Shown: positions 14,453-38,057 of the stretch, piece after piece
How positions within the stretch are numbered: the first letter of the stretch is position 1
Layout of the letters: each line of letters opens with the position of its first letter
Notes under the pieces: model-generated
What the model was told of the DNA's origin: nothing
The model's database searches: none
The model's input: the letters and a program-made list of their open reading frames with translations, nothing else
Made by a program: the position numbers and the translations under genes
Source: Candidatus Parcubacteria bacterium
GTDB lineage: Bacteria > Patescibacteriota > Minisyncoccia > Phycocordibacterales > CAIZLB01
Assembly (NCBI GenBank): GCA_039795775.1
Contig: JBDKLC010000005.1
Location: forward strand, 3,654-67,653
Direction of reading: 5' to 3'
Length of the DNA: 64,000 nt

Positions 14453-16846
14453 ATGAATGAAGAAGAAAAAGTAACATATTTCGCCGAAACAGACGCTCGA
14501 AATCAGCGACTGAAATTCGGTATCAAATCAAAAGACCGAACACGACACATGTACGTGATTGGTAAAACGGGTATGGGTAAATCTACCTTACTCGAAAACC
14601 TTGCTGTTCAAGATATTCAGAACGGTAACGGTCTCGCATTCATTGATCCGCACGGCAAAACAGCCGATCTTCTCCTCGAATACATTCCAGAGCATCGAAT
14701 CAACGATGTAGTGTATTTTGCACCGTTCGATATGGAGCACCCTGTATCTTTCAACGTAATGGAAGACGTAGGAGCAGAACGACGTCACCTCGTAGCAAGT
14801 GGTCTCATGAGTGCATTCAAAAAGATTTGGGTGGATGCATGGTCTGCGCGAATGGAATACATTTTGGGAAATATTATGCTCGCGCTTCTTGAGTACCCTG
14901 GTTCGACACTTATTGGTGTAAACAGAATGCTTGCGGACAAAAACTTCCGAAATAAAGTTGTCGACAACATTACTGATCCTTCAGTAAAATCATTTTGGGT
15001 AGATGAATATGCCAAGTACACCGAGAAATTCGCTGCCGAAGCTGCACCTGCAATTCAAAACAAGGTAGGTCAATTCGTTGCCAATCCACTTGTGCGAAAT
15101 ATTATTGGTCAGCCAAAATCTACATTTGATATTCGAAAGATTATGGATGAGAAAAAGATTCTCATTATCAACCTTTCAAAAGGGCGAGTAGGTGAATCAA
15201 ATGCCAACCTTCTTGGAAGTATGCTTATTACAAAGATTTATCTCGCGGCTATGTCACGAGCGGATCTCAACGAAAAGCAGCTCAAAGAAGCTCCACAGTT
15301 TTATCTCTACGTGGATGAATTCCAGTCATTTGCCAATGAATCGTTTGCTGACATTTTATCAGAAGCCCGAAAGTATAAACTTAACCTTACAGTTGCTCAC
15401 CAGTATATTGAACAAATGAGTGAGGAAGTGCGTGCTGCCGTGTTCGGAAACGTGGGTACTATGGTCACATTTCGAGTGGGCGCATATGATGCTGAAGTAT
15501 TGGAAAAAGAATTCTCACCACAATTTCTTGCAACAGATATTGTGAATCTTCAGCAGTACCAGATGTATCTCAAACTCATGATTGATGGTGTAAGTTCTCA
15601 GCCATTCTCAGCTACAGGTATGTCTCCGATTGCAAAGCCTGAAAAAATGTACGTACAAGAAATTATTGATGCATCTCGAAGAAACTTTGCAAAACCTCGA
15701 TATGAAGTAGAAGATGAAATTCGACGATGGCACGAAAATCCATTTACTGAAAACCCAAGTGCCAGTGGTGCAGCAAGTAGTGGGGGAAATACGAGCGGTG
15801 GAAGTCGAGAAGGACGAGATGGAAATCGCGACAATAGAGGATCTCGAGATGGAGGTGGTCAAGGAGGAGGAGAACGACGATCATCTGACAGACAAGGTGG
15901 ATCTAGTATGCAAGGAGGACGTGACAATGCACCTCGAAGCAACAGTTCTGGTCGAGACAATAGAGACAGCAGAGACAACGGAGGTCAACCTATGATCTCT
16001 GGAGGTAGTCGACCTGAGAGGCAAGGAGAGAGACAGGATAGACCTCGAGATGTCTCACGAGATAATCGAGATCGAAATGATCGAGGCGATCGGAATGAAA
16101 GAAGTGACCGTGGAGACCGGGGTGATCGGCCAACTTCTGATCGACCAGCATCAGGTTCAAAGAAAGATAAAGAAAACCGAGAAGCTGAACTTCGAAAAGC
16201 TATTTCTTTGAGTTACCTCAAGGCAGAGCCAGATAAAAAGAACGATCAAAAGTCAGGCAAACCTGAAAACATTGCGGCACTCCGTGATGCACTTATTACT
16301 GTTATGCAAGACGCAAAAGTGGATACGTCGTCTATGGAAGCAGCTATAGAGCAAGCAACATCTGAAGACACTCCGTCTACTCAGTCGGCTGCTCCTTCTT
16401 CTGTGCAGCACAACCAGCCTCAACAGATCAAGCCAAAGACTCATATCAACTTTAAGACGGCTCAACCAGTTTCTTCGAATAGACCTCAGTCACAAGTTCA
16501 GAACCAAGAGTCAAAACAGTATCAAACACAGATGTCCCAGCCCGTAGTTCAGCCTCGAGCAGAAGAGCCAGTAGTAGAAGCATCAGCTATACATACACCT
16601 ACACAAACAACACAGACTACTCAAACACAATCAACAGAACGGGATGAACAACCGATTCAGTCTCCTCGTCCAACACAACAATCTACACCTGTAGAACCTC
16701 GATTTTCTCAGACAACACAAACACAGCCAGAACCTGAATCACCAAAAAAACAGACGTATCAAGAGTCAGCGGCGCATCAGACTCGAAGAGATCCAGCTGA
16801 AGTACCTGAAGAAGTTCTAAAAAAGATTCTTAACGTACAAGAATAA
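14453..16846 (+). CDS. Type IV secretion coupling-protein-like ATPase (TraD/TrwB/VirD4 family) with a ~370-aa low-complexity disordered C-terminal tail
   Basis: Walker A VIGKTGMGKST. FIDPHGK is like the T4CP motif IDPKGE. Walker B is YLYVDEFQSF, and ARKYKLNLTVAHQYIEQM matches the T4CP C-terminal Q motif. After ~aa 430 come RDGNRDNRGSRDGGGQGGGERRSSDRQGG...RDNRDRNDRGDRNERSDRGDRGDR, then a Q/T/P-rich stretch. No virB genes are nearby. Confidence 0.6.
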   Translation: MNEEEKVTYFAETDARNQRLKFGIKSKDRTRHMYVIGKTGMGKSTLLENLAVQDIQNGNGLAFIDPHGKTADLLLEYIPEHRINDVVYFAPFDMEHPVSFNVMEDVGAERRHLVASGLMSAFKKIWVDAWSARMEYILGNIMLALLEYPGSTLIGVNRMLADKNFRNKVVDNITDPSVKSFWVDEYAKYTEKFAAEAAPAIQNKVGQFVANPLVRNIIGQPKSTFDIRKIMDEKKILIINLSKGRVGESNANLLGSMLITKIYLAAMSRADLNEKQLKEAPQFYLYVDEFQSFANESFADILSEARKYKLNLTVAHQYIEQMSEEVRAAVFGNVGTMVTFRVGAYDAEVLEKEFSPQFLATDIVNLQQYQMYLKLMIDGVSSQPFSATGMSPIAKPEKMYVQEIIDASRRNFAKPRYEVEDEIRRWHENPFTENPSASGAASSGGNTSGGSREGRDGNRDNRGSRDGGGQGGGERRSSDRQGGSSMQGGRDNAPRSNSSGRDNRDSRDNGGQPMISGGSRPERQGERQDRPRDVSRDNRDRNDRGDRNERSDRGDRGDRPTSDRPASGSKKDKENREAELRKAISLSYLKAEPDKKNDQKSGKPENIAALRDALITVMQDAKVDTSSMEAAIEQATSEDTPSTQSAAPSSVQHNQPQQIKPKTHINFKTAQPVSSNRPQSQVQNQESKQYQTQMSQPVVQPRAEEPVVEASAIHTPTQTTQTTQTQSTERDEQPIQSPRPTQQSTPVEPRFSQTTQTQPEPESPKKQTYQESAAHQTRRDPAEVPEEVLKKILNVQE

Positions 16847-17608
16847 TATTCGTGCGTACGATCTCAAAAGACCTGGAATATATCCTGGGTAATTATTTTT
16901 GTATGTCTGTATAAGGTCAAGAGTTATCTTGTTCATTTCGAGAGCTTTTGCACTACTTGCACTACTTTTTCTAATAGTATATTCAACATCACAGCCATCA
17001 AGGTTTGCGATTTTTCCTTCGATACCCATACGGAACCAGAGATCATAATCTTCGTTGAGGTACATTGGTTTGAATCCACCCACTTTCAAATATGCCTCTT
17101 TTCGAAACATAACAGATGAAGTCGTAAAACAATTTCGTTGAAGTAAGACCGCTCGAATATCTTCATCTCGAGTGGGGTTCTTGTGTGTACGAATAGGGGA
17201 GCCGTCTTCTTTGACAATATTGATTGTGCTTGAACCAACCAAGAGATGTTCGTGATGGTCATCGAGGAAATCATGCTGCTTTTGTAGTTTTTGAGGAGAA
17301 AGCCACAAATCATCGTCGTCAATAAAGGCGATATATTTGCCCGTAGCTTCTTTGATACCAATGTCTCGGGCAACTCCGGGGCCAACGTTCTTAGGAAGAT
17401 TAACGAGTCGTAATCGTGGTTCAAATGTTTTGAGTTCGTTTACTACAGTAGCTGTGCTATCAGTACTGCCATCGTTAATGATGAGAACTTCAAGCATGTG
17501 CTGGGTATGAGTATCATTTGCAAATGACTGCTCGAATACACTTTTGATTGCTCGAGAAATAAAAGCTGCACCGTTTTTTGTGGCAATAATGACGCTGATG
17601 TTACTCAT
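16817..17608 (-). CDS. Glycosyltransferase family 2
   Basis: VIIATKNGAAFISRAI...INDGSTDSTA...AFIDDDDLW carries the GT-A DxD signature. Confidence 0.85.
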   Translation of the reverse strand: MSNISVIIATKNGAAFISRAIKSVFEQSFANDTHTQHMLEVLIINDGSTDSTATVVNELKTFEPRLRLVNLPKNVGPGVARDIGIKEATGKYIAFIDDDDLWLSPQKLQKQHDFLDDHHEHLLVGSSTINIVKEDGSPIRTHKNPTRDEDIRAVLLQRNCFTTSSVMFRKEAYLKVGGFKPMYLNEDYDLWFRMGIEGKIANLDGCDVEYTIRKSSASSAKALEMNKITLDLIQTYKNNYPGYIPGLLRSYARILFLYVKNLF

Positions 17609-17639
17609 ATATGTGTCTATTATACAATATTACGGTCTA

Positions 17640-18518
17640 TTAGATTCGTATCCAGTCTGAAGGAGTGGCATTGGTCGTGTCTACGGTGTGTGATTGAATC
17701 CACTGTTTTGGACCTACAACAACCTTTGATGCTGAAGGGTTAAGCCATGCACCCCACCAACTAAATGAACTGTTGGCGATGATATGGTGTGAACAGTTGC
17801 TCATGAGTACAAGTTCCTCGTATTCTTGAATATCAGGTGATGAGACATAATTGATGGTGATGTCTTTTGTCTGTAGATGTTGCTTGGCCCAGTTTATATC
17901 ATCTGAAAATACAAAAAGCTGAATATTTTTTGATTCTTTCTTTTGAATTTCTTCGATAGCTTTGTAGTAGTAGTCGAGTTGAAGTACGCCATGATGGGCT
18001 GCTGCATGTTTGTTTGTGACATAGTCACCTCGGCGAATATGAAGTGATACTGGTGCGAAGCCGGCTTCTTTTAGTTCTTTTATTTTGAGATACAGAGACT
18101 GTGCAGATACCCCAAGTGGTTTCTTTGGTGTGAAGTCTGATCGGATTGCATCAGCGAAGTCTTTGAAATAATCGTCAGTTTGCCACCAGCCTTCGAGATA
18201 TGAACCGTCTTTTGGTGAGAGTATCGCTGTGTTTGTTTTGTACCAGTTTGTAGCAAAGATCCTGTTTTGTATAATTCTTTTTAATTTATGAAAAGGATTT
18301 TTTGTTTTTGAAATATCAGATACTGATGCTTCAGGGAGTGTAACATTAAAATTAGTGAGTCGAAGAGGACGCACTGTATCGCGGGCGGCTGTGCCGCCCG
18401 CGATATATTCAGTGAGGTCATATGCCACATCCCACCCAGTTCGCAGAGCGATAGTTTTGCCTACTGCATACTGAAACATTTGATTGCCGAGGCCACCTTT
18501 AAGCTTGACGATTATCAT
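17640..18518 (-). CDS. Glycosyltransferase family 11 (alpha-1,2-fucosyltransferase-like)
   Basis: The N-terminal GGLGNQMFQYA motif is diagnostic of GT11/FutC-like enzymes, and the ~290-aa length fits. Confidence 0.8.
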   Translation of the reverse strand: MIIVKLKGGLGNQMFQYAVGKTIALRTGWDVAYDLTEYIAGGTAARDTVRPLRLTNFNVTLPEASVSDISKTKNPFHKLKRIIQNRIFATNWYKTNTAILSPKDGSYLEGWWQTDDYFKDFADAIRSDFTPKKPLGVSAQSLYLKIKELKEAGFAPVSLHIRRGDYVTNKHAAAHHGVLQLDYYYKAIEEIQKKESKNIQLFVFSDDINWAKQHLQTKDITINYVSSPDIQEYEELVLMSNCSHHIIANSSFSWWGAWLNPSASKVVVGPKQWIQSHTVDTTNATPSDWIRI

Positions 18519-19446
18519 GTTGAATATAGTTACTCATAAGGGTGAGATACTTTTTTGTAGCAACAGTGTCTGTAAAGTGTTCGAGGCTGTATGCTCGAGG
18601 TCGTAAACGAGAGTAGTGCTCAGTGAGCTTTTGGAGCTGAGTGCCGAAGTCAGATTCATCTTTGAAGAAATATCCGCATGAGGCCATGAGATAAGGTGCG
18701 CTAATCTTTGTATCTTTCCAATAGAAATCTTCGTGTTCCCAGAACCCACGATTCCATACGAGTGTAGGAACATCTCGGATCCATGCTTCGTGAAGGGCGA
18801 GCCCCTGACTTTCAGATTCAGAGAGATAAATCATAAATGCAGAAGATTCGAGTTTTCGATAAAAATCTTCTTGTTTAAAAAAACCATAGTGAACCACTGT
18901 GAACGGAATATCTCGGGCAGACAAGTCATTCATAACTGCTTTTACTAATTCTTCAGGAGCATTCTTTTGATAAATAAGAACTTGAAGCCGTTTTGATCGT
19001 GGAATTGGAGGTACTCCGGGATCTACTACACCAGCAGCCCATACTTTTATTTTATCTTTGAGTGAAGGAATCTGATAGATATAAAAATCACGCACCCATG
19101 GTGATGGCACAATGAGCATATCGATAAGTGGATTGTCTAAGAGCTTTTTGTGGTCGAGAGGAGAGATAGTAATAGTCGGACCAGCCACAAGTGTTCGAAA
19201 TGCTCCTTTTCGTTTGAGAGCTAACGCTTCTTTGAGTGTCTGGACGCCAGAAACCACATGCACAACATCAGATGGGCTTGTTGGATATGTATCCATTCGA
19301 AATGGAACGCCTTGTTCTTGAAGACCAACAGAAAGACTTCGAACAACTGACGCGGGGCCACGTACTTTATTTTTGATATTTCGAAAATAGACTTTCCATC
19401 GACCGAGGGAAAAGAAACTTTTTGGTGAAGTCCACAGGAGTAACAT
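18499..19446 (-). CDS. Putative GT-B fold glycosyltransferase (GT4-like)
   Basis: The C-terminal motif YLSESESQGLALHEAWIRDVPTLVW resembles the GT4 E-x7-E donor-binding motif (SxxEGFGLxxLEAMAxGxPV). It overlaps the neighbouring gene and sits in the glycan operon. Confidence 0.45.
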   Translation of the reverse strand: MLLLWTSPKSFFSLGRWKVYFRNIKNKVRGPASVVRSLSVGLQEQGVPFRMDTYPTSPSDVVHVVSGVQTLKEALALKRKGAFRTLVAGPTITISPLDHKKLLDNPLIDMLIVPSPWVRDFYIYQIPSLKDKIKVWAAGVVDPGVPPIPRSKRLQVLIYQKNAPEELVKAVMNDLSARDIPFTVVHYGFFKQEDFYRKLESSAFMIYLSESESQGLALHEAWIRDVPTLVWNRGFWEHEDFYWKDTKISAPYLMASCGYFFKDESDFGTQLQKLTEHYSRLRPRAYSLEHFTDTVATKKYLTLMSNYIQHDNRQA

Positions 19447-19460: not shown

Positions 19461-20210
19461 TTATTTTTTTACAAACCAGAATAGTCCACAACCGTATGTT
19501 TCATTGTCTGATTGAGCCTCTGTGGCGTTGGTGATAATACCACCATCTTTTTCCTGTTCTGGGACGAGTGAAAACTCACGAAGTTCGAATTCAGGGAAGT
19601 AGCTGAGGACCTGCTTATAGCTATAGATTCGGTGGGCATTAAACATGATTTTAGGCTTGCCTACAGGTGTTACGAACAAGAGGGAACCCCCTTGTCGTAC
19701 AACGCGTTTAAGCTCATTTATTGCCTTTATATCGCCTTCTGGGTCGATAGGGTCACCGTATCGGCCGAGCCCAATGTGCTCTATCGTATGCATACACGAA
19801 AGTGAGGCCAATTCACTGTCCTGGAAGGGCAGTTTCATGAGGTCGCCTTCTTTGCTTTCTAGGTCTGAAAGGTAAAGAGGAGCTGGTCGATAGTCGTAAA
19901 AATGCACAGGTACAAAGGCTGATACAATGCCACAGAAATAGAGACTTGAAGAAATATCTACATGAAACGCTGGGTTTATCTCTTTTACCTTTCGAGCTGC
20001 CCACGATGTGTGATACACATAGTGCCGGTCAAATCCTGTAAGTCGAGTCTTATCGAAGATCTGTGGAAAGACGTCACTGATGTTTGTAGAAAAACGTTGT
20101 TTCGAATCTCTGTTTCTGTACACGATATAATCGAGTGCGATAAAGAGGAATAATGGAAAATAAATAACTTTTTTTATAAATCTCAGTGTTGATCGAAGTG
20201 ATGATGGCAT
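19461..20210 (-). CDS. Putative SAM-dependent methyltransferase (DUF268-like)
   Basis: LSCMHTIEHIGLGRYGD...GGSLLFVTPVG is reminiscent of the class I MT-like DUF268 family. The assignment is weak. Confidence 0.35.
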   Translation of the reverse strand: MPSSLRSTLRFIKKVIYFPLFLFIALDYIVYRNRDSKQRFSTNISDVFPQIFDKTRLTGFDRHYVYHTSWAARKVKEINPAFHVDISSSLYFCGIVSAFVPVHFYDYRPAPLYLSDLESKEGDLMKLPFQDSELASLSCMHTIEHIGLGRYGDPIDPEGDIKAINELKRVVRQGGSLLFVTPVGKPKIMFNAHRIYSYKQVLSYFPEFELREFSLVPEQEKDGGIITNATEAQSDNETYGCGLFWFVKK

Positions 20211-20220: not shown

Positions 20221-21165
20221 TTAACTAATAATACGTGTGGCTTTTCGTTTAAGGGAACGGACTATATTAAATGGTTTGTTCCCCAAGTATGCCATACCTA
20301 ACTTAATATATGAAAGTGCGTTAAATGGATGTATTTTGATTGATTTTTTAAGATAATGAATTGCTTGCTTTTGTTCTTTGTTATAAAGATGAAGTCCAGC
20401 AATTGAATGGAGCACATTACTATAACTCGATGGAAATTTTAAAAAAGTATTTTCATATTTTGTAATAATGTGAGTTAAATCTCTGAGACGTTCTTTTGAT
20501 GAGGTTAATATATTTGAAGTATTGTTGTTGTGTATATGATATCGGACAAGCACGTCTGGCAAGAATATATAGGGAATATCTTGATCAATCATTCTCGTAA
20601 CTAGATCAAAATCTGCGAACATCTTAAGTTGTGTATCAAGGTATCCTACTTTTTCTAGTACGGATCTTTTAATACAAAGCATACTAAAGGTATTAAAGTA
20701 TTTCCCAGCAAGCAATTCTTTTTTTGAAAGACTACCTTTTGTTATTTTAACTTTAGCCGTCGTTATTAATCCTGTTAGATCATTAATATGTTCAACATTT
20801 GAAGCAATGAATCCTATTTGTGGATTTAAAGTAAAAAAAGTATGTAGAATTTCTAGTTTGTTTGATCTCCATTCATCGTCATGGTCGAGAAATGCGATAT
20901 AGCTACCTTTCGAAACATCAATACCAACATTTGTAGGAACTGTTGGTCCACCAGAGTTAGTCGTAGTAATTACTTTTATTCGTGAATCTTCAGAACTAAG
21001 CTCAAGTAAAATAGTTGAGGTCTCGTCCTTTGAACCATCATCAATAATAATAAGTTCAAAATCTGAGTACGTTTGTTGAAGTACGCTGGTTACAGTCCTT
21101 CTGATAAATTGTTCACTATTATAAGTAGGAATAATTACACTAAAAAAAGGATTTTTCTGTGACAT
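20221..21165 (-). CDS. Glycosyltransferase family 2
   Basis: FSVIIPTYNSEQFI...IIDDGSKDET...AFLDHDDEW. Confidence 0.85.
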   Translation of the reverse strand: MSQKNPFFSVIIPTYNSEQFIRRTVTSVLQQTYSDFELIIIDDGSKDETSTILLELSSEDSRIKVITTTNSGGPTVPTNVGIDVSKGSYIAFLDHDDEWRSNKLEILHTFFTLNPQIGFIASNVEHINDLTGLITTAKVKITKGSLSKKELLAGKYFNTFSMLCIKRSVLEKVGYLDTQLKMFADFDLVTRMIDQDIPYIFLPDVLVRYHIHNNNTSNILTSSKERLRDLTHIITKYENTFLKFPSSYSNVLHSIAGLHLYNKEQKQAIHYLKKSIKIHPFNALSYIKLGMAYLGNKPFNIVRSLKRKATRIIS

Positions 21166-21169: not shown

Positions 21170-21703
21170 TTAGTTTAGGAACGGAAGAAGTTGATCTTTT
21201 TCAGAAACAACAGGTGTAGTAACACCCCAGTCTATATCGAGTGTTGGGTCATCAAATCGAATGCCACCTTCAGCAGTTTTTGTGTATTCTTTTGTACATG
21301 CATACAAAAAGTATGCTTCATCTGAGAGCACTGAGAAGCCATGAGCAAATCCAGGTGGTATGTAGATGAAGGTACTGTCTTCACCAGTCAAATCAATTGT
21401 TTGAAACTTTTTGTACGTAGGTGAATCAGATCTCATGTCTACAAAAACATCCCGAACTTTTCCAGAAATAAGATATACAAGTTTACCTTGCGCAAATTCT
21501 CCGTGCTGATAGTGAAGCCCTCGAATCACATCTTTTTTCGAATACGACATGTTGTACTGAGGAAAACTATCAGGTAGTCCGAGTTTCTTAAATTCAGAGA
21601 TTTTTGCCATCTCCATAAAATATCCACGATCATCATGGAATTTGTCAGAAGTAACAATTAATACATCTGGTAAATCTGTCAGAGCTGTAACTTTAAAAGC
21701 CAT
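21170..21703 (-). CDS. rmlC: dTDP-4-dehydrorhamnose 3,5-epimerase-like cupin (RmlC family)
   Basis: DDRGYFME...RGLHYQ...GKLVYLISGKVRDVFVDMR...IYIPPGFAHGF matches RmlC-family signature motifs. Confidence 0.8.
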   Translation of the reverse strand: MAFKVTALTDLPDVLIVTSDKFHDDRGYFMEMAKISEFKKLGLPDSFPQYNMSYSKKDVIRGLHYQHGEFAQGKLVYLISGKVRDVFVDMRSDSPTYKKFQTIDLTGEDSTFIYIPPGFAHGFSVLSDEAYFLYACTKEYTKTAEGGIRFDDPTLDIDWGVTTPVVSEKDQLLPFLN

Positions 21704-21746: not shown

Positions 21747-22814
21747 TTACTTGCCGAGAGCTTTGTGGGCAAACAGGGTCTGAAGACGGTTTTTGTATAT
21801 CTCTGTAGATGCAGTATCTGGGAAGGCGACATTTGTATATGGATGCAATTCGAGGGCTTTTTCTATCTGTACCCATGTAGGTTCGATGTCATAGAGGTAT
21901 TCACTCTTGAGGAATCGGAGTGTATGAGGTTTGTGTGAAAATTTGCTGAAGAGTTTGGCAAAAAATGAAGGCTTAGTTTCGTATGTCTCAAGATTGAGGG
22001 TATCGCCATTTTGTGGCAATGGTTTAGTTGGCACCAGAGCTGGGAAGGCAATATAGAATTGCTTGTAGATATCGAGTATCAGAGCGAAATCGGTATATGA
22101 TTTCATATCTTTTGAAACAAGGTGAATGTGCTGCATCGCATAGTCGTATCGAGCGAGCCACAAGTCACGGAGCTCTTTGATCTTTGCGCCTTTTGCTTTG
22201 TGTTCTTCTACAAAGTGATAGAGATGTGCTTCACTATTCATTCGTTTTTCTACAAGCTTTTCAGGATTCATTGAAAGGCAATATTCTTTGAATAAAGCAG
22301 GCTTCATGGCAAAGAGCATGTCATTGTAGTTACCTGGTGCAGCGTGGAGCATTGTGCCATCTGGCAAGATGTAGTCGGGGTTACTTATTACAATATCATC
22401 AGTAGAGTTTGTGAGGAGTTGTGTGAAGTCCGGAAGCTTGTAGAGGATGTGTCGAGATGTGTAATACACTACCCAGTCGTATTGTTTGAGTTGATCACCG
22501 AGTCGGTCGAGTACTGCCATGCACATTTGGAATTCTCCAGCTCCTTTGTTTTTACTACCGAGTGCATTGTTGTTGATGAGAAATTTATATTTCACATCGT
22601 TAGATCCAACGAGTGTTCTGCTGTGATTGTTTTCAAATGACGTGATACTTTCTGTAGTATTTTCTACAACGCAAATATCAGCAACACCTTTTGTTTGTTG
22701 AATGAGATTCCAGAGAGCTACAGCATAGAGTTCTTGTCTGTTATATCTCTGTCGAAATGATGTGTTTGCAGGTTGGTAAGAGGAAAGACAAACAAACAAA
22801 ATTTTATTATTCAT
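21747..22814 (-). CDS. Hypothetical protein in glycan operon (possible glycosyltransferase)
   Basis: 355-aa ORF with no recognisable motif. It is in an operon with glycosyltransferases and the DegT gene. Confidence 0.3.
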   Translation of the reverse strand: MNNKILFVCLSSYQPANTSFRQRYNRQELYAVALWNLIQQTKGVADICVVENTTESITSFENNHSRTLVGSNDVKYKFLINNNALGSKNKGAGEFQMCMAVLDRLGDQLKQYDWVVYYTSRHILYKLPDFTQLLTNSTDDIVISNPDYILPDGTMLHAAPGNYNDMLFAMKPALFKEYCLSMNPEKLVEKRMNSEAHLYHFVEEHKAKGAKIKELRDLWLARYDYAMQHIHLVSKDMKSYTDFALILDIYKQFYIAFPALVPTKPLPQNGDTLNLETYETKPSFFAKLFSKFSHKPHTLRFLKSEYLYDIEPTWVQIEKALELHPYTNVAFPDTASTEIYKNRLQTLFAHKALGK

Positions 22815-31092: not shown

Positions 31093-31120
31093 ACCAAAAA
31101 GCAGCTGCAAACAACTAATA

Positions 31121-31271: not shown

Positions 31272-31327
31272 GGTATTACTTATGCAGTAAAACCTAAACA
31301 CCTAAAGTTCCGCATCCTTTTATTTCT

Positions 31328-32215
31328 TTATTTTTTCTCTAAGATTCCGTAAATGAAGTTACACGGAATTTGTAATTTTTTGAGGAAATCTTCAGCGAGT
31401 TTAAAGTCTTTGTTTTCTGAAAGGAATCGTTCAACCGCGAGCATTGGAGATGTTTCGTGTCCGTACAAACTCTGGTCCCATGTATCCTGCATCATGATGA
31501 TGTCACCTGATTGAAGAAGAGGACCGTAGGTAGTGAGCTCTTTGTATGTGTGTTCGTATGAGTGATCGTTATCAAATGAGAAGAGTACTTTTTTGCCAGG
31601 TGTTCGTGATGCAATAAAGGCTTTCACTTCGTCTACACAATCAAGACTACTTTTCCCATAGAGTGACTGAATTTTTTCAGTTGTCTTGTATGCATCATGA
31701 AATTCTTTTGCTGAAACAACATCAGCATCAGTGATATCGATAGTGAGAATTTTTGGCTGACAATATTTTGAAAGAAGTTCGTAAGTGAAAATTGCTGAAC
31801 CTCCTGATGCTGTTCCAAAATCAACAACGATTTCAGGTTTGAATGTTTCGAATACGTGAGGAATGTTTTTTTCTACATCTGTTCGTACTTGAAGGAAGGG
31901 GAGTTTCTTACCGTTTCGTTCGAGAACGGCATCAGACCATCCGATGTGCTTGCCATCTTTTGTAATAAAGCAAAGCGCAGGATATCCAATAATATTTTTT
32001 CCAATAAAAAACTGTTCTTTGTTTTCGATACCCTTTACTTGAGCATTGTGGATTCGTCGTACGTTCGCTTTGAGAGAAGTAAGGAGGGCAAAGTCATTTC
32101 TCTTAAAAAGATACATATATATAGTACGGAAGTCGTTCCGGAATATGTTTCTTATATAGAGGGCAAGGTGATACGCTTTTCTTACAAACGGTATATTCTT
32201 CAGTTTTGTTTTCAC
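31328..32215 (-). CDS. CmcI/cephalosporin-hydroxylase-family class I SAM-dependent O-methyltransferase (sugar O-methyltransferase-like)
   Basis: IVVDFGTASGGSAIF...ILTIDITD...VLFSFDNDHSYEHT resembles the macrocin/rhamnosyl O-MT family (PF04989-like). Confidence 0.55.
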   Translation of the reverse strand: MKTKLKNIPFVRKAYHLALYIRNIFRNDFRTIYMYLFKRNDFALLTSLKANVRRIHNAQVKGIENKEQFFIGKNIIGYPALCFITKDGKHIGWSDAVLERNGKKLPFLQVRTDVEKNIPHVFETFKPEIVVDFGTASGGSAIFTYELLSKYCQPKILTIDITDADVVSAKEFHDAYKTTEKIQSLYGKSSLDCVDEVKAFIASRTPGKKVLFSFDNDHSYEHTYKELTTYGPLLQSGDIIMMQDTWDQSLYGHETSPMLAVERFLSENKDFKLAEDFLKKLQIPCNFIYGILEKK

Positions 32216-32218: not shown

Positions 32219-33514
32219 TTATGAATTAAATATTATTTTCAAGAGTTTACCTCGAGTATCCTTAAATAGGAAGAGGGAGAGGAAGTTACAGAAATATGAG
32301 ATAAATGTTGCCCAAGCAGCACCAGCGATGCCGTACTTGGGAATGAAGATGAAGTTGAGCACAACGTTCATTGCCATAGCTGAGAATGAAGCAATGAATA
32401 CAGCCTTCTGGTTGTTTTCAGCAAGCAAAAAGTTTTGTGTGAGGTAGGCGAGTGATGTTCCGATACCGGCCCAGATATAAATTTGGAGAATAGGTACTGC
32501 CCCTAGAAACTCCACGCCATATAAGAGCATGATAATTTGTTTTCCAAGAAGCGCCACAGGAAGTGCCACTCCAACAGAAATAAGAACCATAAACAGTCCC
32601 AATCGTTTGAGACGAGCATAGTAAATGTATTCTGATGTTTGTCGCGCATTTACGAGAGCGGGGAACAATGAACCAACAACAAGTCCAGGAATAAAGTACC
32701 ATGCTTCTGCGATTCGAGCAGCAGCGTCGTAAATACCAACTGACTTAGTATCAATAAAGTTTTTGATCATTACTTGATCGATTCGACTATAGATCACCGC
32801 AAATGCACTCGAGAAAAGAAGTGGTAAAGAATTGTAGAGAAGACTTTTTGCGATTTTGTAGTTGAATCTCCAATTGAGGACAGAATCGTAGTATTTGTTT
32901 CGATAGAAAATATAGAAGACTGCATATATAACAGGTTCGAGCATGAATATGATTGTCAAGTAGATGACACCTTTGTTCATGAATACCACGACTAGTTTTA
33001 AAATGTTGAGAAGAACAGATACGTACAGATTGATGAGAGAAGGATACTTTGCCAAAACACTCGCTTGAAACTCATAGGCAACAATATTCCAACCATTGAA
33101 AAGAAACGTCAGAGAAAGAATTGAAATCAACAAGAACGAAATGTCTTGGTGTGATGTATGCCATGCACTTCCAACTGCAATACCGATCATAATGATCCCC
33201 GCAACCATTTTTAAAATAATTGATGTACCGAGGTATTCATTCTTTTTGTCTGGATATTGAATGAGCTCTCTATATAAAATCTGATCTAATCCAAGACTTG
33301 TAAATACAGAGAAGATACCAATATAGCTAATAGAGTAACTAAGGAAGCCATAATTTTCTGGTCCAAGGTAACGCACTACATATGTAGTAACAAAGAAGGA
33401 GATAATAAGACTGAAAATACGAGAAAAGAACATCCAGCCTGCGTTTTTGAGGTATTTCTGAAATCCAGGATTATTGAGCCAAAGTAGGACTTTTTGATAA
33501 AAACTATTGTTCAT
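32219..33514 (-). CDS. wzx: Wzx-like oligosaccharide flippase (MOP superfamily polysaccharide biosynthesis protein)
   Basis: 431 aa with ~12 TM helices. The N-terminus ...KNAGWMFFSRIFSLIISFFVTTYVVRYLGPENYG is typical of Wzx/RfbX. Confidence 0.75.
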   Translation of the reverse strand: MNNSFYQKVLLWLNNPGFQKYLKNAGWMFFSRIFSLIISFFVTTYVVRYLGPENYGFLSYSISYIGIFSVFTSLGLDQILYRELIQYPDKKNEYLGTSIILKMVAGIIMIGIAVGSAWHTSHQDISFLLISILSLTFLFNGWNIVAYEFQASVLAKYPSLINLYVSVLLNILKLVVVFMNKGVIYLTIIFMLEPVIYAVFYIFYRNKYYDSVLNWRFNYKIAKSLLYNSLPLLFSSAFAVIYSRIDQVMIKNFIDTKSVGIYDAAARIAEAWYFIPGLVVGSLFPALVNARQTSEYIYYARLKRLGLFMVLISVGVALPVALLGKQIIMLLYGVEFLGAVPILQIYIWAGIGTSLAYLTQNFLLAENNQKAVFIASFSAMAMNVVLNFIFIPKYGIAGAAWATFISYFCNFLSLFLFKDTRGKLLKIIFNS

Positions 33515-33582: not shown

Positions 33583-35847
33583 ATGAATTCGAACACAGCA
33601 TTACGATACAGTATTATTAGTCTTTTATTCGTTATCCCGTTTGTTCCGCTTATTGTTCTCGGGTCAATGTACTTCCCATATATCACAGGGAAGGCCTTTG
33701 TTTTTAGAACTCTCGTAGAGCTCGCACTCATCTTATATGCTTTTTTAGCTATTCGAGATAAGTCATATTTACCAAAGAAGTCTGCACTCCTTTGGGCTAT
33801 TCTTGGCTTCACTGCTATTCTTGGTCTCGCAACAATCTTCTCAGAAAATCCTTTCCGAAGTTTCTGGAGTAATTACGAACGAATGGAAGGCTATGTAACT
33901 GTTCTTCATTTGCTTGGATACTTTGTACTCCTTGCTGGTGTGTTCACTCGAAAGACATGGTACTGGTTTGCTCATACATCTCTTGCTGCAAGCATCATCA
34001 TTGGCCTTCGAGGTTTGGCTGATGGTCAGACTCGTATTTCAGGAACTCTTGGTAACTCTACATATCTCGGCGTGTATGCAATGCTTCACATCTTTATCGC
34101 TGGTCAATTTATGCTTCGAACTCTTTTCAAAAAAGTATTTTCTGAAGCATGGCCATGGGTTACAGGCTATCTCGTATTCATTGCTTTCAACGCGTTTATT
34201 CTTTACCGAACTGGTACACGAGGTTCATTCCTCGGACTTGTAGCCGGTACAATTGTTACTGCGCTTCTTCTCGCAATCTTTGAACGAACAAATAAAGTAA
34301 TTCGATATACAGGTATCAGTATCCTCGCACTTGTTGTTATCGTTGTCGGATCACTCGGTCTTGCTCGAAACACACAGTTTGTACAACAGTCACAACTTCT
34401 TGCTCGATTCAGTTCACTCATCACTACAGATGTAGGTTCTGTTCTCAAAAATCAGGGATATGCTCGAAGTGTTATTTGGTCAATGGCATACAATGGTTTT
34501 AAAGAACGACCAGTTCTCGGTTGGGGTCAGGACAACTTCAACTATGTATTCGCAAAGTACTATGATCCACGAATGTACAATCAGGAACAGTGGTTCGATC
34601 GAAGTCACAACGTATTCTTTGATTGGCTCATTGCTGGTGGTATCTTAGGTCTTCTTTCATACCTCTCACTCTTTGCAGCATTGCTGTATCTTCTCTGGAG
34701 AAAACAAAATCCAAACGTACAAGAACCATGGCTCTTTACTGAAAAGGCTGTGCTTACTGGACTTCTCGTCGCATATTTTATTCACAATCTCTTTGTGTTT
34801 GATCACCTTGTAAGTTACCTTATCTTCTTTGCTCTCTTGGCATATGTACACAACCGAAGTACAACATTAGCGACTGACAGCAGAAATGCTGGCGCTCTTA
34901 TTGAAAATGAAGGTACACAATATGCAGTAGCAGGACTTATTGGTGTTCTTCTTCTCGGAGCAATGTATGTAATTGTTATTAAGCCGTATTCAGTTTCAGC
35001 GAGTCTCATCCGAGCACTTCAAGCGCAGGTAGGAGGTACAGATTCAAGAGGAAATCGAATTCCTGCAGATTATAAAAAAGCTCTCGCAGAATTTAAAAAT
35101 GTATTTTCGATGAAAACATTTGGAAGTATTGAAGCTCGAGAACGATTGTCTGAAGTTGCTGGTGCTGCCGTAGCTGCAACAACTCTCGATACAGATACTA
35201 AAGTTGGATTCGTACAACTTACTCAGGATGAGTACAAGAAGCAGTTTGCAGAAACAGGAGCAGATCCTCGACCTCCACTCTTCTATGGATTGTTCTTGTC
35301 TCGAATAGGACAGACAGATGCTGCGTTGGTACAGATTCAGCGAGCTCTCGAACTTTCTCCAAAAAAACAATCATTCATCTTCCAAACAGCACTCTTGCAC
35401 TATCAGAAAGGAGAATTTGCAAAGGCCGTTGAATATGCAAAGAAAGGATATGAAGAAGAACCAGCATATAATGAAGCACTTGTCATTTATGCAGCTACAT
35501 TGATTTATAACAACCAGAGTGACATTGCAGAAAAAGAAATCGAAGCTGCGAAAGCTCGAGGTGTTGATGTAACAACTGACGAACGAATTCTCCAGGCGTA
35601 TGTTGAGAAAAAACAATTTGGAAGAATTCTCTCTCTGGTGAAGAAACAAGTAGAAGCAGATCCAAAAAATCCGCAGCTTCATGTTTCTCTCGCTGCAGCA
35701 TATTTAAAAGTGAATGATCGAAAGAACGCTATCAAAGAAATTCAGGAAGCAATCAAAATTGAGCCAGCATTCAAAGCTCAAGGAGAATCATTCATCAAAG
35801 AAATTCAAGCGGGAAGAGATCCATCACAAGCCGTACCAGCAAAATAA
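33583..35847 (+). CDS. O-antigen ligase/polymerase-like (Wzy_C) membrane protein fused to C-terminal TPR repeats
   Basis: The N-terminal ~430 aa are polytopic with an O-antigen-ligase-like core. The C-terminal ~300 aa contain TPR-like helical repeats (ALELSPKKQSFIFQTALLHYQKGEFAKAVEYAKKGYEEEP...). Confidence 0.65.
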   Translation: MNSNTALRYSIISLLFVIPFVPLIVLGSMYFPYITGKAFVFRTLVELALILYAFLAIRDKSYLPKKSALLWAILGFTAILGLATIFSENPFRSFWSNYERMEGYVTVLHLLGYFVLLAGVFTRKTWYWFAHTSLAASIIIGLRGLADGQTRISGTLGNSTYLGVYAMLHIFIAGQFMLRTLFKKVFSEAWPWVTGYLVFIAFNAFILYRTGTRGSFLGLVAGTIVTALLLAIFERTNKVIRYTGISILALVVIVVGSLGLARNTQFVQQSQLLARFSSLITTDVGSVLKNQGYARSVIWSMAYNGFKERPVLGWGQDNFNYVFAKYYDPRMYNQEQWFDRSHNVFFDWLIAGGILGLLSYLSLFAALLYLLWRKQNPNVQEPWLFTEKAVLTGLLVAYFIHNLFVFDHLVSYLIFFALLAYVHNRSTTLATDSRNAGALIENEGTQYAVAGLIGVLLLGAMYVIVIKPYSVSASLIRALQAQVGGTDSRGNRIPADYKKALAEFKNVFSMKTFGSIEARERLSEVAGAAVAATTLDTDTKVGFVQLTQDEYKKQFAETGADPRPPLFYGLFLSRIGQTDAALVQIQRALELSPKKQSFIFQTALLHYQKGEFAKAVEYAKKGYEEEPAYNEALVIYAATLIYNNQSDIAEKEIEAAKARGVDVTTDERILQAYVEKKQFGRILSLVKKQVEADPKNPQLHVSLAAAYLKVNDRKNAIKEIQEAIKIEPAFKAQGESFIKEIQAGRDPSQAVPAK

Positions 35848-35908: not shown

Positions 35909-37015
35909 TTGATATACTTATATGCATTACTGGTATTTAATTTGTACATGAAGAAAATTCATATTTTTGCTGTGTTGGCTGTGGTTGTACTAGTTGCTGC
36001 ATTTGCCTATGCATTCTGGTTCAATCCAAATCCCAACATGTTCCTTCAGTCTTCTGCGGCGCGGAAGATTCAGGAATCGTTTAATCGTGGTGACATAGAT
36101 GGTTCAATCCGTCTTGCTGAAGAAGCAACTGCAAAGAATTCAAATGATTCTATGGCATATACGCTTCTTTCACTCTCATATTCTCAGAAGGGAACACTCG
36201 AGTTCAAAGAACAAGAATATGGAGCGAAAGCCGTAGAGGCAGCTAACAAGGCAATTAGTTTCTCTCCAAAAAATAGTGAAGCATATCGAGCTCTTGGATA
36301 TGCGTATGAAATTCAGCAAAAATATAATGATGCTTTTAGTGCATACAACCAAGCTATAGTCTTGGACTCATCTAACTATCAAGCAATTGCGGCTCGAGCA
36401 CATGCATATGATCTCTTTGGTGATATCGGAAATGCAAAAATTGGATACGAGCAAGCTCTCAAACTCGAACCATCACTTGATCTTACTCGACTTAACTTGG
36501 CTCGAGTATATGTTCGAGAACAGACATACGATAAAGCAACTGCCGAATTAAAACGACTTACTCAATCAGCAAAAAACGTAACTACTAAAGCTGATGCATA
36601 TCAGGTACTAGGTACTATTAGTCTCATTCAATCTCAGTCAGCGCAGGCAGTTTCACTTTTTGAACAATCAGTGCAACTCTTTGCATCGTCTTCAAGTGCA
36701 CAGGCCGGTCTAGCCCAAGCACATCTCTTGTACCTTGCTCAAACACTTTCAACATCTTCATCAATGGAAGTATTTTTGAAGCACATCGAGCAAGTGTTTG
36801 ATCACGCTCAGTTGTCTCTTGATATCAACCCCGCACAAGCTACTGGATATCTCGCATTAGCTGACGCTACACTACTCATCGGAGAAAAAGCAGAAGCAAA
36901 GAAGATCTATCAATTCATGCTTGATACAGCTGTTGATAACGACATTACATTAGGTGCTCAAGAAAAAGTAGGTATGAAGGCATATGTTAAAGATCAATTA
37001 TCAAAAATAAAGTAA
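35909..37015 (+). CDS. TPR-repeat protein with N-terminal TM anchor
   Basis: Signal anchor IHIFAVLAVVVLVAAFAYAF, then multiple 34-aa TPR units (SEAYRALGYAYEIQQKYNDAFSAYNQAIVLDSSN...). Confidence 0.65.
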   Translation: MIYLYALLVFNLYMKKIHIFAVLAVVVLVAAFAYAFWFNPNPNMFLQSSAARKIQESFNRGDIDGSIRLAEEATAKNSNDSMAYTLLSLSYSQKGTLEFKEQEYGAKAVEAANKAISFSPKNSEAYRALGYAYEIQQKYNDAFSAYNQAIVLDSSNYQAIAARAHAYDLFGDIGNAKIGYEQALKLEPSLDLTRLNLARVYVREQTYDKATAELKRLTQSAKNVTTKADAYQVLGTISLIQSQSAQAVSLFEQSVQLFASSSSAQAGLAQAHLLYLAQTLSTSSSMEVFLKHIEQVFDHAQLSLDINPAQATGYLALADATLLIGEKAEAKKIYQFMLDTAVDNDITLGAQEKVGMKAYVKDQLSKIK

Positions 37016-37019
37016 CAAT

Positions 37020-38057
37020 ATGAATACTTCAATTTCACACATGAAAAAGATATCGATTCTCCTCGTTGCTTTTGTATTTATGTTTGTAGCATTTGCTTTA
37101 CCGAAAAAAGCTGAAGCCTCATTCGAGATCAACATTAAAACTAATGTTGGTACATATAAAGTAACAATTAAACATTGGAACGATTGGGGAGAATGTAATG
37201 AATGTTATGATCGATATCGATCAGGATTCGTTACGACAGCAAAAGCATATGCACAAAAAGGGGCAGGAGTGTATCATTTCACACAAGCTTGTGGTAACCA
37301 CAATGATATTACAGTTCGATTGATTAAGAAGAATCCGCCTAAACCACCTATCATACCTCCGGTAATTCCAGTCACAACATGTTCTGCTGGATCAGGACAG
37401 ATTGTTGTTGGGGGAGTTTGTACGTGTCCTCTTGGACAGAATCTTGTCGGCGGTGTTTGTACAGGAATAGATAGTTGTCCTGCACAAAGTCTCATATATC
37501 CGACAGGATTCGTTGGACCACTTCCTACTGGAGGCGTGTACGAAACAGCTGCTTGTCCAAAATACACATGTAATAGCAACAACATTTGTGAAGCAAAAGA
37601 AAATAATTCAAGTTGTCCTGCTGATTGTAGTGTAACTCCGCCTCCACCTACATCTTGTACAAGTGATCCACTTGTTGGAACAACTTGCTCAACAGGAAGA
37701 TGTGGAGCAGAAGGAGATGGCACAATGATTTGTACACCATCTGGTCTTCAGTGTCAGACAGGTCCAGCTTATAAATGTGTTGGTGCAGCTATTGATACAT
37801 TCAAAGCACTTCCAGGTGATGTAAACAAAGGTCAGTCATGTACATTGTCTTGGGAAGTTGCAGACGCTGTAAGTTGTAAGATCACACGACCAAATGGAAC
37901 AACACTTCTCAGTGCTCCAGCGATTCCAAGAGGATCTTCTCCGTCAGATCCAATTCAAGAAACAACGATATATACACTTACATGTAAGGGAACAAATGAT
38001 GTTCCAGTTTCATCTCAGGTGAAATGTAAGTTGAATGCAGGAGTCACACAGTTCTAA
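37020..38057 (+). CDS. Secreted cysteine-rich protein (hypothetical)
   Basis: Signal peptide MKKISILLVAFVFMFVAFALPKKAEA. About 30 Cys in 345 aa, with patterns GVCTCPLGQNLVGGVCTG and CSAG..C. Contains a PPKPPIIPPVIP linker. Confidence 0.55.
   Translation: MNTSISHMKKISILLVAFVFMFVAFALPKKAEASFEINIKTNVGTYKVTIKHWNDWGECNECYDRYRSGFVTTAKAYAQKGAGVYHFTQACGNHNDITVRLIKKNPPKPPIIPPVIPVTTCSAGSGQIVVGGVCTCPLGQNLVGGVCTGIDSCPAQSLIYPTGFVGPLPTGGVYETAACPKYTCNSNNICEAKENNSSCPADCSVTPPPPTSCTSDPLVGTTCSTGRCGAEGDGTMICTPSGLQCQTGPAYKCVGAAIDTFKALPGDVNKGQSCTLSWEVADAVSCKITRPNGTTLLSAPAIPRGSSPSDPIQETTIYTLTCKGTNDVPVSSQVKCKLNAGVTQF

Follow-up and report, generated by a model that had tools for sequence, protein, structure and literature searches.

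A surface-glycan locus of a Candidatus Parcubacteria bacterium with a predicted pathway for lipid-linked pentofuranose

A stretch of 64,000 nucleotides from a Candidatus Parcubacteria bacterium (the window: contig JBDKLC010000005.1 of assembly GCA_039795775.1, positions 3,654 to 67,653 of the forward strand) carries a surface-glycan locus at positions 16817 to 38057. An earlier interpretation made from the DNA letters alone, the sequence-only reading, had placed such a locus here, and its borders fall on gene ends: the first of two genes for family 2 glycosyltransferases (GT2) has its 3' end at 16817, and the gene for a cysteine-rich secreted protein has its stop at 38057. Leloir glycosyltransferases, enzymes for amino- and deoxy-sugars, methyltransferases and a Wzx flippase confirm that this is a surface-glycan locus. 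Gene calls were judged against the curated cut-offs of Pfam and NCBIfam, and a map of open reading frames (ORFs) with their translations was used for the boundaries. The earlier description omits a gene for a protein of 355 amino acids at 21747-22814 and five genes at 25955-30467. The latter belong to one operon and encode, in the order of transcription, a UbiA-type protein, a short-chain dehydrogenase/reductase (SDR), a glycosyltransferase of the GT-C type, a protein similar to small multidrug resistance (SMR) transporters and a phosphatase of the haloacid dehalogenase (HAD) family, which are predicted to form a module for a lipid-linked pentofuranose.

A pathway of this kind has been described by Kelly et al. 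(PNAS 2024, PMC11127046), who showed that a polyprenyl-phosphate 5-phosphoribosyltransferase (PPPRS) and a HAD phosphatase make undecaprenyl-phospho-ribofuranose from phosphoribosyl pyrophosphate (PRPP). In their scheme, an optional cytoplasmic SDR (ORF13) epimerises the lipid-linked sugar, a flippase exports it and a GT-C enzyme adds it to an exported glycan (PMC11127046). ORF15, ORF14 and ORF12 of Citrobacter youngae O1/O2, together with ORF13, constitute such a three-component system within the O-antigen cluster; ORF13 yields xylofuranose (Xylf), and an SMR-type flippase was proposed for M. tuberculosis (PMC11127046).

The first gene of the module in the window (29604..30467, minus strand) encodes a UbiA-family homologue of the M. 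tuberculosis PPPRS Rv3806c. The match to Rv3806c (PDB 8j8j) has an E-value of 1.4e-41 and spans residues 12-280. The motifs NDIADREQD (residue 66) and GKRIAE (residue 183) align with Rv3806c, as does RPIASG. Equivalents of residues N247, D248, D251 and D255 of ORF15, which form the NDxxDxxxD motif of loop II, and of R366 and E369 in loop IV were shown to matter in ORF15 and in the decaprenyl-phosphate phosphoribosyltransferase DPPRS (PMC11127046). Based on family membership and these motifs, the UbiA protein is predicted to transfer ribose-5-phosphate from PRPP to polyprenyl phosphate. In a related genome (L006, see below), the gene immediately upstream of the orthologue encodes a PRPP synthetase.

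The second gene (28548..29582, minus strand) encodes an extended SDR of the GalE-like epimerase/oxidoreductase type (PF01370, E 4.9e-40) with the motifs GGSGFLG and YGKAK and no signal peptide. Its active-site strand reads ISSTAVYG and does not contain the TDE motif of dehydratases. At this strand, 4,6-dehydratases carry TDE and decarboxylases SE; ISSTAVYG is GalE-like, and the acid/base residues found in RmlB, UXS and ArnA are missing from it. A role of the SDR as a 4,6-dehydratase or a decarboxylase was ruled out by this motif together with the gene context. The protein is predicted to epimerise polyprenyl-phospho-ribofuranose, and xylofuranose and arabinofuranose (Araf) are not told apart as its product by sequence.

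The third gene (26835..28538, minus strand) encodes a polytopic membrane protein that resembles the arabinofuranosyltransferase AftB, its sole sequence match in the PDB; ArnT was not matched by sequence. A profile of 37 sequences of this GT-C family aligned with AftB (PDB 9dlf) with an E-value of 4.4e-18. In the alignment, the invariant pair D47-D48, which starts a helix at residues 47-60 after the first transmembrane helix (TM1), corresponds to the DD motif of McAftB that holds the catalytic D62, and R194 and R343, which are invariant across the 37 family members, correspond to McAftB R221 and R372. Both of these arginines stabilise the leaving phosphate in AftB and are essential (PMC12041299). 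The AlphaFold2 model of the window protein has a pLDDT of 93.5 and adopts the GT-C fold: AftB was the top match in a Foldseek search (E 2.7e-10, TM-score 0.58), followed by ArnT (third-best), AglB, PglB and oligosaccharyltransferase (OST) subunits, and the matches with E <= 0.001 were GT-C enzymes without exception. The profile alignment ends at AftB residue 391, and the C-terminal domain has an invariant motif of its own, PGHNKYDL. Motifs and model together point to an AftB-like enzyme, which is predicted to transfer a lipid-linked pentofuranose outside the membrane.

The two remaining genes encode small proteins. The product of the fourth gene (26470..26832, minus strand) has 120 amino acids and four transmembrane segments (4-TM) and gave matches below the cut-offs to EamA, SMR, ArnF (E 5.4e-6) and ArnE; it is a predicted flippase for the lipid-linked pentose. 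A gene for a MATE protein, which is the flippase type of the C. youngae prototype, is not present in the module; the 4-TM SMR-like gene is conserved there, and a Wzx protein of the MOP superfamily is encoded nearby. The fifth gene (25955..26431, minus strand) encodes a HAD-IIIA phosphatase (PF09419, 34.2 bits against a cut-off of 20.4) with the nucleophile motif DIDGT (DxDGT). HAD-UbiA fusion proteins from four metagenomic loci (L103, L110, L125 and L159) have an N-terminal HAD domain with 35-38% identity to this protein, which is the predicted polyprenyl-phospho-ribose-5-phosphate 5'-phosphatase (PRP) of the module.

The sequence-only reading had raised the question whether the locus is a variable region, and comparison with three related Patescibacteria assemblies (L003, GCA_038230075.1; L004; L006) separated a conserved core from a mosaic periphery. 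The genes for UbiA, SDR, GT-C, SMR and HAD are collinear in all three, and the flanking genes differ. The identities to the window proteins amount to 74-79% for the SDR, 55-58% for UbiA, 55-66% for SMR, 53-65% for GT-C and 38-44% for HAD. SecA, which is 66.5% identical between the window and L003, served as a yardstick; compared with this value, the GT11 fucosyltransferase-family protein, a probable GT-B glycosyltransferase, the Wzy_C-TPR protein (all described below) and the HAD phosphatase are fast-evolving. L003 is nearly collinear with the window; however, it lacks the CmcI gene, and its GT11 at the same position is only 32% identical. In addition, the HAD phosphatase and the Wzx flippase of L003 are encoded by one in-frame ORF of 565 amino acids (12010-13707), a fusion that is of interest because the flippase of the prototype is a MATE protein and thus a member of the MOP superfamily. 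In L006, a Bac_transf initiating-transferase gene and pilB, pilC and pilM are found at the end of the cluster, a UDP-glucose dehydrogenase gene adjoins the DegT gene, and no GT11 was found in the part of L006 that was examined. In L004, the core of five genes stands by itself, downstream of rplJ and rplL.

The linkage of the SDR with PPPRS extends beyond these genomes. A scan of metagenome contigs for the SDR retrieved at least 562 loci, of which the best 80 (69-79% identical) were analysed with up to 10 kb, and often much less, on each side. Unbiased clustering of the neighbours identified UbiA/PPPRS as the commonest neighbour; it is present in 20 of the 80 loci, in each case encoded on the same strand at a distance of no more than 3.5 kb, and in four of these 20 it is a HAD-UbiA fusion, which is the architecture of ORF15. 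An AftB-like protein is encoded in only two of the 80 loci, and others carry PMT_2-type or unassigned polytopic membrane proteins; the GT-C partner of SDR and PPPRS is exchangeable. Directly upstream of a UbiA-SDR pair in one contig (L092, 7395-9152) lies a gene for a 585-amino-acid fusion of a 9-TM membrane domain with a C-terminal HAD domain (PGP_phosphatase), a further way in which parts of the module are fused. More distant homologues of the SDR are found in haloarchaea (48-51% identity). On a plasmid of Halostagnicola larsenii (L170), the gene for a homologue with 49% identity is located between genes annotated as decaprenyl-phosphate phosphoribosyltransferase and as "DolP-mannose mannosyltransferase", a GT-C protein; this cluster also encodes a PHP-domain protein. 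On pNGR234a of Sinorhizobium fredii NGR234 (L169, 299.6-307.7 kb), a homologue with 33% identity directly precedes an SMR transporter gene, and a UbiA gene follows after another 5.4 kb or so; the same cluster also encodes a large hypothetical protein and a GMC oxidoreductase. Both plasmid clusters appear to be uncharacterised pentofuranose systems. A UbiA/PPPRS homologue with 36% identity over 97% of the query is also encoded by an unannotated phage record of 6.6 kb from human faeces (MT837543.1, 4874-5746), which is consistent with the reported carriage of pentofuranose modification genes by phages.

The GT-C family has a distribution of its own. It was found in at least 556 GTDB species representatives, mostly of the Anaerolineae and the Myxococcota, and 80 loci were examined for neighbouring genes; the closest GTDB species representative is labelled as an uncultured Candidatus Saccharibacteria. 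The idea that the family is always paired with UbiA was rejected, since only four of the 80 loci have an adjacent UbiA gene. A candidate GT-C-UbiA fusion protein (P0089) contains only a truncated UbiA segment (residues 21-155) and is weak evidence for such a pairing.

In the window, the operon that starts with the UbiA gene continues beyond the HAD gene to a gene for a protein of 560 amino acids (24217..25899, minus strand). The sequence-only reading had called this protein a methyltransferase fusion. A weak N-terminal signature of S-adenosylmethionine (SAM)-dependent methyltransferases is indeed present (Methyltransf_23, E 1.8e-4); however, the methyltransferase half scores 21.7 bits and thereby remains below the gathering cut-off of 27, and the C-terminal domain is without assignment, with a faint match to Glyco_tran_WecG (WecG/TagA) at an E-value of about 0.01. 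Orthologues adjoin DegT in L003 (55% identity) and L006 (39%). Instead of the two minus-strand operons that had been proposed, gene spacing and hairpins indicate three transcription units: Wzx-CmcI, UbiA through the 560-amino-acid gene, and DegT through GT2. The last two are separated by a gap of 220 bp (23997-24216). Wzx-CmcI is parted from the UbiA operon by two terminator-like hairpins 3' of the CmcI gene (31121-31267, minus strand), the first of which (31121-31153) has a 15-bp stem with 12 GC pairs, and the second of which (31221-31267) is a perfect palindrome of 20 bp; they are probably bidirectional terminators between transcription units. The gap of 860 bp between the two units (30468-31327) also contains, between the UbiA operon and the CmcI terminators, a plus-strand ORF of 131 amino acids (30697-31092) with a G+C content of 58.6% compared to about 39% in the flanks. 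It has no match in Pfam, PHROG or Rfam, and a search of 1.84 billion representative proteins retrieved, besides the ORF itself, only a borderline match of E 7.3e-4 over 22 residues; the Rfam scan of the gap returned hairpin noise only. The ORF may be an orphan gene or a non-coding insertion.

The genes around the module encode mainly glycan enzymes of known families, and most of the calls made in the sequence-only reading, namely those for the two GT2 proteins, GT11, the DUF268 methyltransferase, RmlC, DegT, CmcI, Wzx and the Wzy_C and TPR regions, lie above curated cut-offs. All genes of this part are on the minus strand. The DegT unit starts with a pyridoxal phosphate (PLP)-dependent sugar aminotransferase of the DegT/PseC/ArnB type (22851..23996; PF01041, E 1e-113), which has its PLP lysine in SFHAVK and scores 326.7 bits against PseC and 310 bits against ArnB, both under the equivalog cut-offs. 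It is followed by the 355-amino-acid protein without assigned function (21747..22814), for which no match was found in Pfam, NCBIfam or PHROG; its homologues in L003 and L006 (32-46% identity over about 235 amino acids) adjoin DegT or CmcI. The next genes encode an RmlC-type dTDP-4-dehydrorhamnose 3,5-epimerase (21170..21703; TIGR01221, 191.9 bits against 155.75; PF00908, E 1.8e-59) and the second GT2 (20221..21165; PF00535, E 6.5e-34), whose G+C content of 31.3%, compared to 40% locus-wide, suggests a recent acquisition or replacement. Further downstream are a SAM-dependent methyltransferase of the DUF268 type (19461..20210; PF03269, E 5.2e-17, 62.7 bits against 25) and a protein that had been described as GT4-like (18499..19446). 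For the latter, a similarity to GT-B enzymes was recovered; however, it is below the thresholds throughout (Glycos_transf_1, E 0.2; no Pfam match at E <= 0.01), and the best GT-B match was obtained with the L006 orthologue (Glyco_transf_4, 27.6 bits against a cut-off of 28.5). The orthologues in L003 and L006 are 37-41% identical, and the protein is listed here as a probable but unconfirmed GT-B-fold glycosyltransferase. The unit ends with a protein of the GT11 alpha-1,2-fucosyltransferase family (17640..18518) and the first GT2 (16817..17608; PF00535, E 4.2e-31), which matches the EpsD and TuaG equivalogs below cut-off. The GT11 assignment held in the profile search (PF01531, 107.1 bits against 23.9); the protein contains the motifs GGLGNQ (residue 8) and HIRRGD (residue 160, HxRRxD type), and PF01531 is present in all of its 120 best homologues, many of which are from Patescibacteria. 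The separate Wzx-CmcI unit encodes a Wzx-type flippase of the MOP superfamily (32219..33514; PF01943, 90.1 bits against 28.2, and PF13440) and a protein of the CmcI/rhamnosyl O-methyltransferase family (31328..32215; PF04989, 83.1 bits against 23.2). A methylated glycan with amino- and deoxy-sugars is predicted from this set of Leloir enzymes and methyltransferases together with RmlC and DegT. The matches to TuaG and TuaB are far below the equivalog cut-offs; a teichoic- or teichuronic-acid pathway was rejected for this reason, and the locus does not correspond to a known pathway for peptidoglycan or teichoic acid, an alternative that the sequence-only reading had named.

Divergently to these units, three plus-strand genes that had already been recognised in the sequence-only reading were found. 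The first (33583..35847) encodes a Wzy_C membrane domain (PF04932, 68.1 bits against 31.7) with C-terminal tetratricopeptide repeats (TPR), which match several TPR families, and an invariant loop QEQWFDRxHN. This architecture had been regarded as unusual; however, PF04932 and TPR occur together in all of the 120 best homologues (40-71% identity, at least 90% of the query covered). At E <= 1e-5, 2710 proteins were retrieved, and the named ones are labelled Patescibacteria, Paceibacterota or Parcubacteria. With the relatives of Wzy_C-TPR and GT11 labelled as Patescibacteria group, Paceibacterota, Parcubacteria or Wolfebacteria, the earlier proposal of an ultrasmall bacterium is reasonable. The AlphaFold2 model of Wzy_C-TPR has a pLDDT of 89.5, and the predicted order of the helices places the TPR region most likely outside the membrane. 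Wzy_C proteins with C-terminal TPR have been described for the O-oligosaccharyltransferases WsfB and PglL, and WsaB has an adjacent TPR protein, WsaA (PMC2943079). Roles of Wzy_C-TPR as a polymerase, a ligase or an O-oligosaccharyltransferase were not separable by fold or profile search. An initiating phosphoglycosyltransferase (Bac_transf, WecA) and a chain-length regulator (Wzz) are both missing from the window. Because of the architecture of the protein and the lack of a chain-length regulator in the window, en-bloc ligation by an O-oligosaccharyltransferase or ligase is favoured over the polymerisation of repeat units, with modest confidence and by analogy to the described enzymes. The second gene (35909..37015) encodes a TPR protein with an N-terminal hydrophobic membrane anchor and matches to several TPR families (E down to 2.8e-14), which is possibly analogous to WsaA. 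The third (37020..38057) encodes the cysteine-rich secreted protein, which has a signal peptide ending in AEA and many cysteines; it has no match in Pfam or PHROG and is not kept beside Wzy_C-TPR in L003.

Several genes outside the locus touch on its possible precursors. A phosphomannomutase (PMM)-like HAD protein, a cupin-type sugar-phosphate isomerase and a cluster for glycogen synthase, GH57 and phosphorylase are encoded directly downstream (38575-44747), and RpiB, Rpe and a split transketolase, which could supply ribose-5-phosphate, are encoded at 56981-60377. About 8.5 kb upstream lies a gene for an SDR of 367 amino acids with a GDP_Man_Dehyd Pfam match, which does not settle an identity as gmd or fcl. 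On the other side of the first GT2 lies a plus-strand gene for a TrwB/VirD4-like coupling-protein homologue (14453-16846), which has a low-complexity C-terminal tail of about 400 amino acids with many Ser, Arg, Asp, Gln and Thr residues. At its 3' end, this gene shares 30 nt with the convergent GT2 gene. A protein of 2301 amino acids (1517-8422, plus strand), for which the source annotation gives no Pfam family, is preceded by several unassigned genes and may be a giant surface protein.

Taken with some reserve, the locus is probably a composite surface-glycan island of three blocks, one of which is a PPPRS-dependent module for a lipid-linked pentofuranose. In the first block, the two GT2 enzymes, GT11, the probable GT-B enzyme, RmlC, DegT and up to three methyltransferases would build a methylated oligosaccharide with amino- and deoxy-sugars on a polyprenyl carrier; the chain would be started by an initiating transferase encoded elsewhere, and Wzx would flip the product. 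In the second block, the UbiA enzyme would transfer ribose-5-phosphate from PRPP to polyprenyl phosphate, and the HAD phosphatase would strip the 5-phosphate. The cytoplasmic GalE-like SDR would then epimerise the lipid-linked ribofuranose to xylo- or arabinofuranose, the 4-TM SMR-like protein would flip this pentose donor, and the AftB-like GT-C enzyme would attach the pentofuranose to an extracytoplasmic acceptor, for which the glycan of the first block is the most likely candidate. The third block, consisting of Wzy_C-TPR, the TPR protein and the cysteine-rich protein, would accomplish the last extracytoplasmic step, the en-bloc ligation to a surface protein or another acceptor.

This proposed pathway resembles several characterised systems without being identical to any of them. 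It shares with the C. youngae system a UbiA-type PPPRS, a HAD protein, a GT-C enzyme and the location in a glycan cluster that contains Wzx, and it has candidates for the dedicated flippase and for the cytoplasmic GalE-like SDR epimerase that sets the pentose. In contrast to C. youngae, the HAD protein is encoded by a separate gene in the window, although related metagenomic loci do encode HAD-UbiA fusions. Furthermore, the flippase candidate is a 4-TM SMR-like protein instead of a MATE protein, and the GT-C enzyme is AftB-like, whereas the GT136 enzyme of the prototype is closest to ArnT. The Parcubacteria bacterium is of the monoderm type and has no lipopolysaccharide (LPS); the acceptor can therefore not be an O antigen. 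The mycobacterial pathway for decaprenyl-phospho-arabinose (Rv3806c, Rv3807c, DprE1/DprE2, Rv3789, AftB) likewise leads from PRPP via a lipid-linked pentose to an extracytoplasmic transfer, and it starts with a homologous enzyme, ends with a homologous GT-C enzyme with the DD motif and both essential arginines, and includes a small putative flippase of the SMR type. However, the phosphatase is a HAD protein in the window and a PAP2 protein in mycobacteria, and one extended SDR is found where mycobacteria have DprE1/DprE2, of which there are no homologues here, so that Xylf may be formed instead of Araf. The extracytoplasmic C-terminal domain of the GT-C enzyme did not align with that of AftB in the sequence profile, and Emb, AftA, AftC and AftD are absent here, for which reason an arabinan polymer is not predicted. 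In the D-Araf system for pilin of P. aeruginosa Pa5196/PA7 (PPPRS, DprE1/DprE2 homologues, TfpW), a GT-C enzyme also uses a PPPRS-derived lipid-linked pentofuranose outside the membrane. This system is linked to the type IV pilus, and L006 has the module beside pil genes; however, TfpW has its own TPR and adjoins pilA, whereas in the window the TPRs are on Wzy_C and on a separate protein, and the locus has no pilin gene. The slg clusters for S-layer glycans of Paenibacillus alvei and Geobacillus stearothermophilus resemble the third block, with C-terminal TPR on Wzy_C (WsfB) or a TPR protein next to it (WsaA by WsaB), and they also contain rml-type genes, glycosyltransferases and methyltransferases. 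Unlike in these clusters, the window contains no initiator of the WsaP/WsfP type, although a Bac_transf gene adjoins the cluster in L006, and no characterised O-oligosaccharyltransferase was matched by sequence. Finally, the GT11 protein agrees with the alpha-1,2-fucosyltransferases FutC, WbgL and WbsJ in its PF01531 score well above cut-off, the HxRRxD motif and the N-terminal GGLGNQ; it differs from them in that no genes for GDP-fucose are found nearby and that its closest named relatives are from environmental Patescibacteria.

The same genes have been considered in other ways. The locus could direct a classical Wzx/Wzy-dependent polymer of repeat units, similar to a capsule or an O antigen, with Wzy_C-TPR as the polymerase and GT11 adding alpha-1,2-fucose, thereby forming an H-antigen-like epitope that mimics the host. 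The locus encodes both Wzx and, divergently to it, a Wzy_C-domain protein, GT11 passes the profile search and has the HxRRxD motif, and the PMM-like HAD protein and the cupin-type isomerase are encoded just downstream. However, the Wzy_C domain does not tell a polymerase from a ligase or O-oligosaccharyltransferase, the TPR-bearing WsfB and PglL being cases in point, and neither Wzz or another polysaccharide co-polymerase (PCP), nor an initiating transferase, nor gmd, fcl or manC are found in about 80 kb; the donor of GT11 is not assignable from the locus, because genes for GDP-fucose synthesis are absent from this region. Groundwater Patescibacteria, Wolfebacteria among them, commonly carry GT11, which is therefore no pointer to an animal host, and GT11 belongs to the fast-changing periphery, as indicated by its low identity in L003 compared with SecA and its absence from the examined part of L006. 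A classical polymer of this kind is thus considered unlikely, and the mimicry of a host H antigen, which the sequence-only reading had raised, is unsupported. Of the methylated amino- and deoxy-sugar polymer predicted there as Wzx/Wzy-dependent, the glycan genes and Wzx are borne out, whereas a role of Wzy_C-TPR as Wzy polymerase is not established and is possible only. It was also considered that the module acts apart from the Leloir genes and glycosylates a protein directly, perhaps an S-layer protein or a type IV pilin, in the way in which TfpW attaches D-Araf to the pilin of P. aeruginosa; its position would then merely reflect a clustering of envelope functions. TfpW is itself a GT-C enzyme with a PPPRS-derived donor, the core of L004 stands apart from glycan genes with a prepilin-type (N_methyl) gene about 8 kb away, the cluster of L006 abuts pilB, pilC and pilM, and O-glycosylation of pilins was predicted but is uncharacterised in Saccharibacteria (10.1101/2024.11.25.624915). 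In contrast, the GT-C enzyme of the window has no TPR domain and no adjoining pilin gene, glycan genes surround the module in a conserved order in the window as well as in L003 and L006, and the published prototype modifies the glycan of its own cluster. Direct glycosylation of a protein is accordingly regarded as somewhat more doubtful still than the classical polymer.

In a further scenario, the SDR would be a nucleotide-sugar enzyme of an Arn-like aminopentose route, either a 4,6-dehydratase that feeds RmlC and DegT or a UDP-glucuronate decarboxylase that feeds an ArnB-like DegT. A GT2 would load undecaprenyl phosphate, the ArnE/ArnF-like SMR protein would flip the product and the GT-C enzyme would act as ArnT, with UbiA and HAD being unrelated. 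The score of DegT against ArnB, the weak matches of the SMR protein to ArnF and ArnE, the rank of ArnT among the GT-C enzyme's structural matches and the UDP-glucose dehydrogenase gene beside DegT in L006 agree with this route, and among PDB sequences the SDR matches dTDP-glucose 4,6-dehydratases best (E 3e-24). However, the ISSTAVYG strand is neither of the TDE nor of the SE type, and the SDR scores only 91.9 bits against TIGR01181, which has a cut-off of 365. No ArnA formyltransferase or ArnD deformylase was found, and the scores against ArnB, ArnC, ArnE and ArnF are far below the equivalog cut-offs. The linkage of SDR and UbiA persists without nearby DegT or GT2 genes in L004, on the Halostagnicola plasmid and where HAD-UbiA fusions lie directly upstream of the SDR, and the GT-C enzyme aligns by sequence with AftB including the catalytic residues, not with ArnT. 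An Arn-like route is therefore very improbable.

Several observations weigh against the composite island with its pentofuranose module. The UbiA protein scores 201.8 bits against the NCBIfam model NF008977, which bears the same name as Rv3806c (decaprenyl-phosphate phosphoribosyltransferase), and thus lies just below the equivalog cut-off of 234. Genes for rmlA/B/D, gmd/fcl, manC, PRPP synthetase and an initiating transferase are missing from the window and from about 8.5 kb before and 8.2 kb after it (about 80 kb in total). With regard to the conserved linkage, 59 or 60 of the 80 SDR loci have no PPPRS gene in the sequence covered. In the GT-C family, UbiA is adjacent in only four loci (L007, L013, L022 and L068), and unbiased clustering of the neighbours yielded no consistent partner; the donor can therefore not be generalised from the family, and its assignment rests on the operon of the GT-C enzyme itself and on the conservation of the active site. 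In L004, no glycan genes are located right around the core, with the nearest ones, a GT4 and a Bac_transf gene, about 8-9 kb downstream, so that the acceptor need not be the product of the first block. Concerning the third block, Foldseek matched Wzy_C-TPR only to TPR proteins in the PDB, and the profile of the Wzy_C membrane domain retrieved no PDB sequence even at E <= 10.

The locus is a Wzx-dependent surface-glycan cluster containing a PPPRS-dependent pentofuranose module, and both are known kinds of system. All components of the module have precedents, namely the HAD protein and the SDR in C. youngae and the SMR-type flippase and AftB in mycobacteria; the combination and the lineage are new. 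Patescibacteria depend on surface contact with their host cells, and many of them live on Actinobacteria; their surface glycans, however, are essentially uncharacterised. A study of the pili of Saccharibacteria calls pilus glycosylation unexplored (10.1101/2024.11.25.624915). The proposed pathway gives a testable prediction for these bacteria, namely a Wzx-flipped methylated glycan containing amino- and deoxy-sugars that would receive a PRPP-derived pentofuranose outside the membrane. The linkage of PPPRS, SDR and GT-C that is known from O antigens of enterobacteria also occurs in Patescibacteria, on rhizobial symbiosis plasmids and on plasmids of haloarchaea. The conserved SDR family is therefore well suited to studies on the epimerisation of lipid-linked ribose without DprE1/DprE2. 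It can be speculated, although we regard it as unlikely, that the SDR is a single-enzyme replacement for DprE1/DprE2 that epimerises C2, and that Patescibacteria thereby display Araf on a glycan or glycoprotein by means of an AftB-like enzyme. If true, this would give the candidate phyla radiation its first pathway for pentofuranosylation, and it would provide a cofactor-recycling path to lipid-linked arabinose that should resist drugs targeting DprE1.

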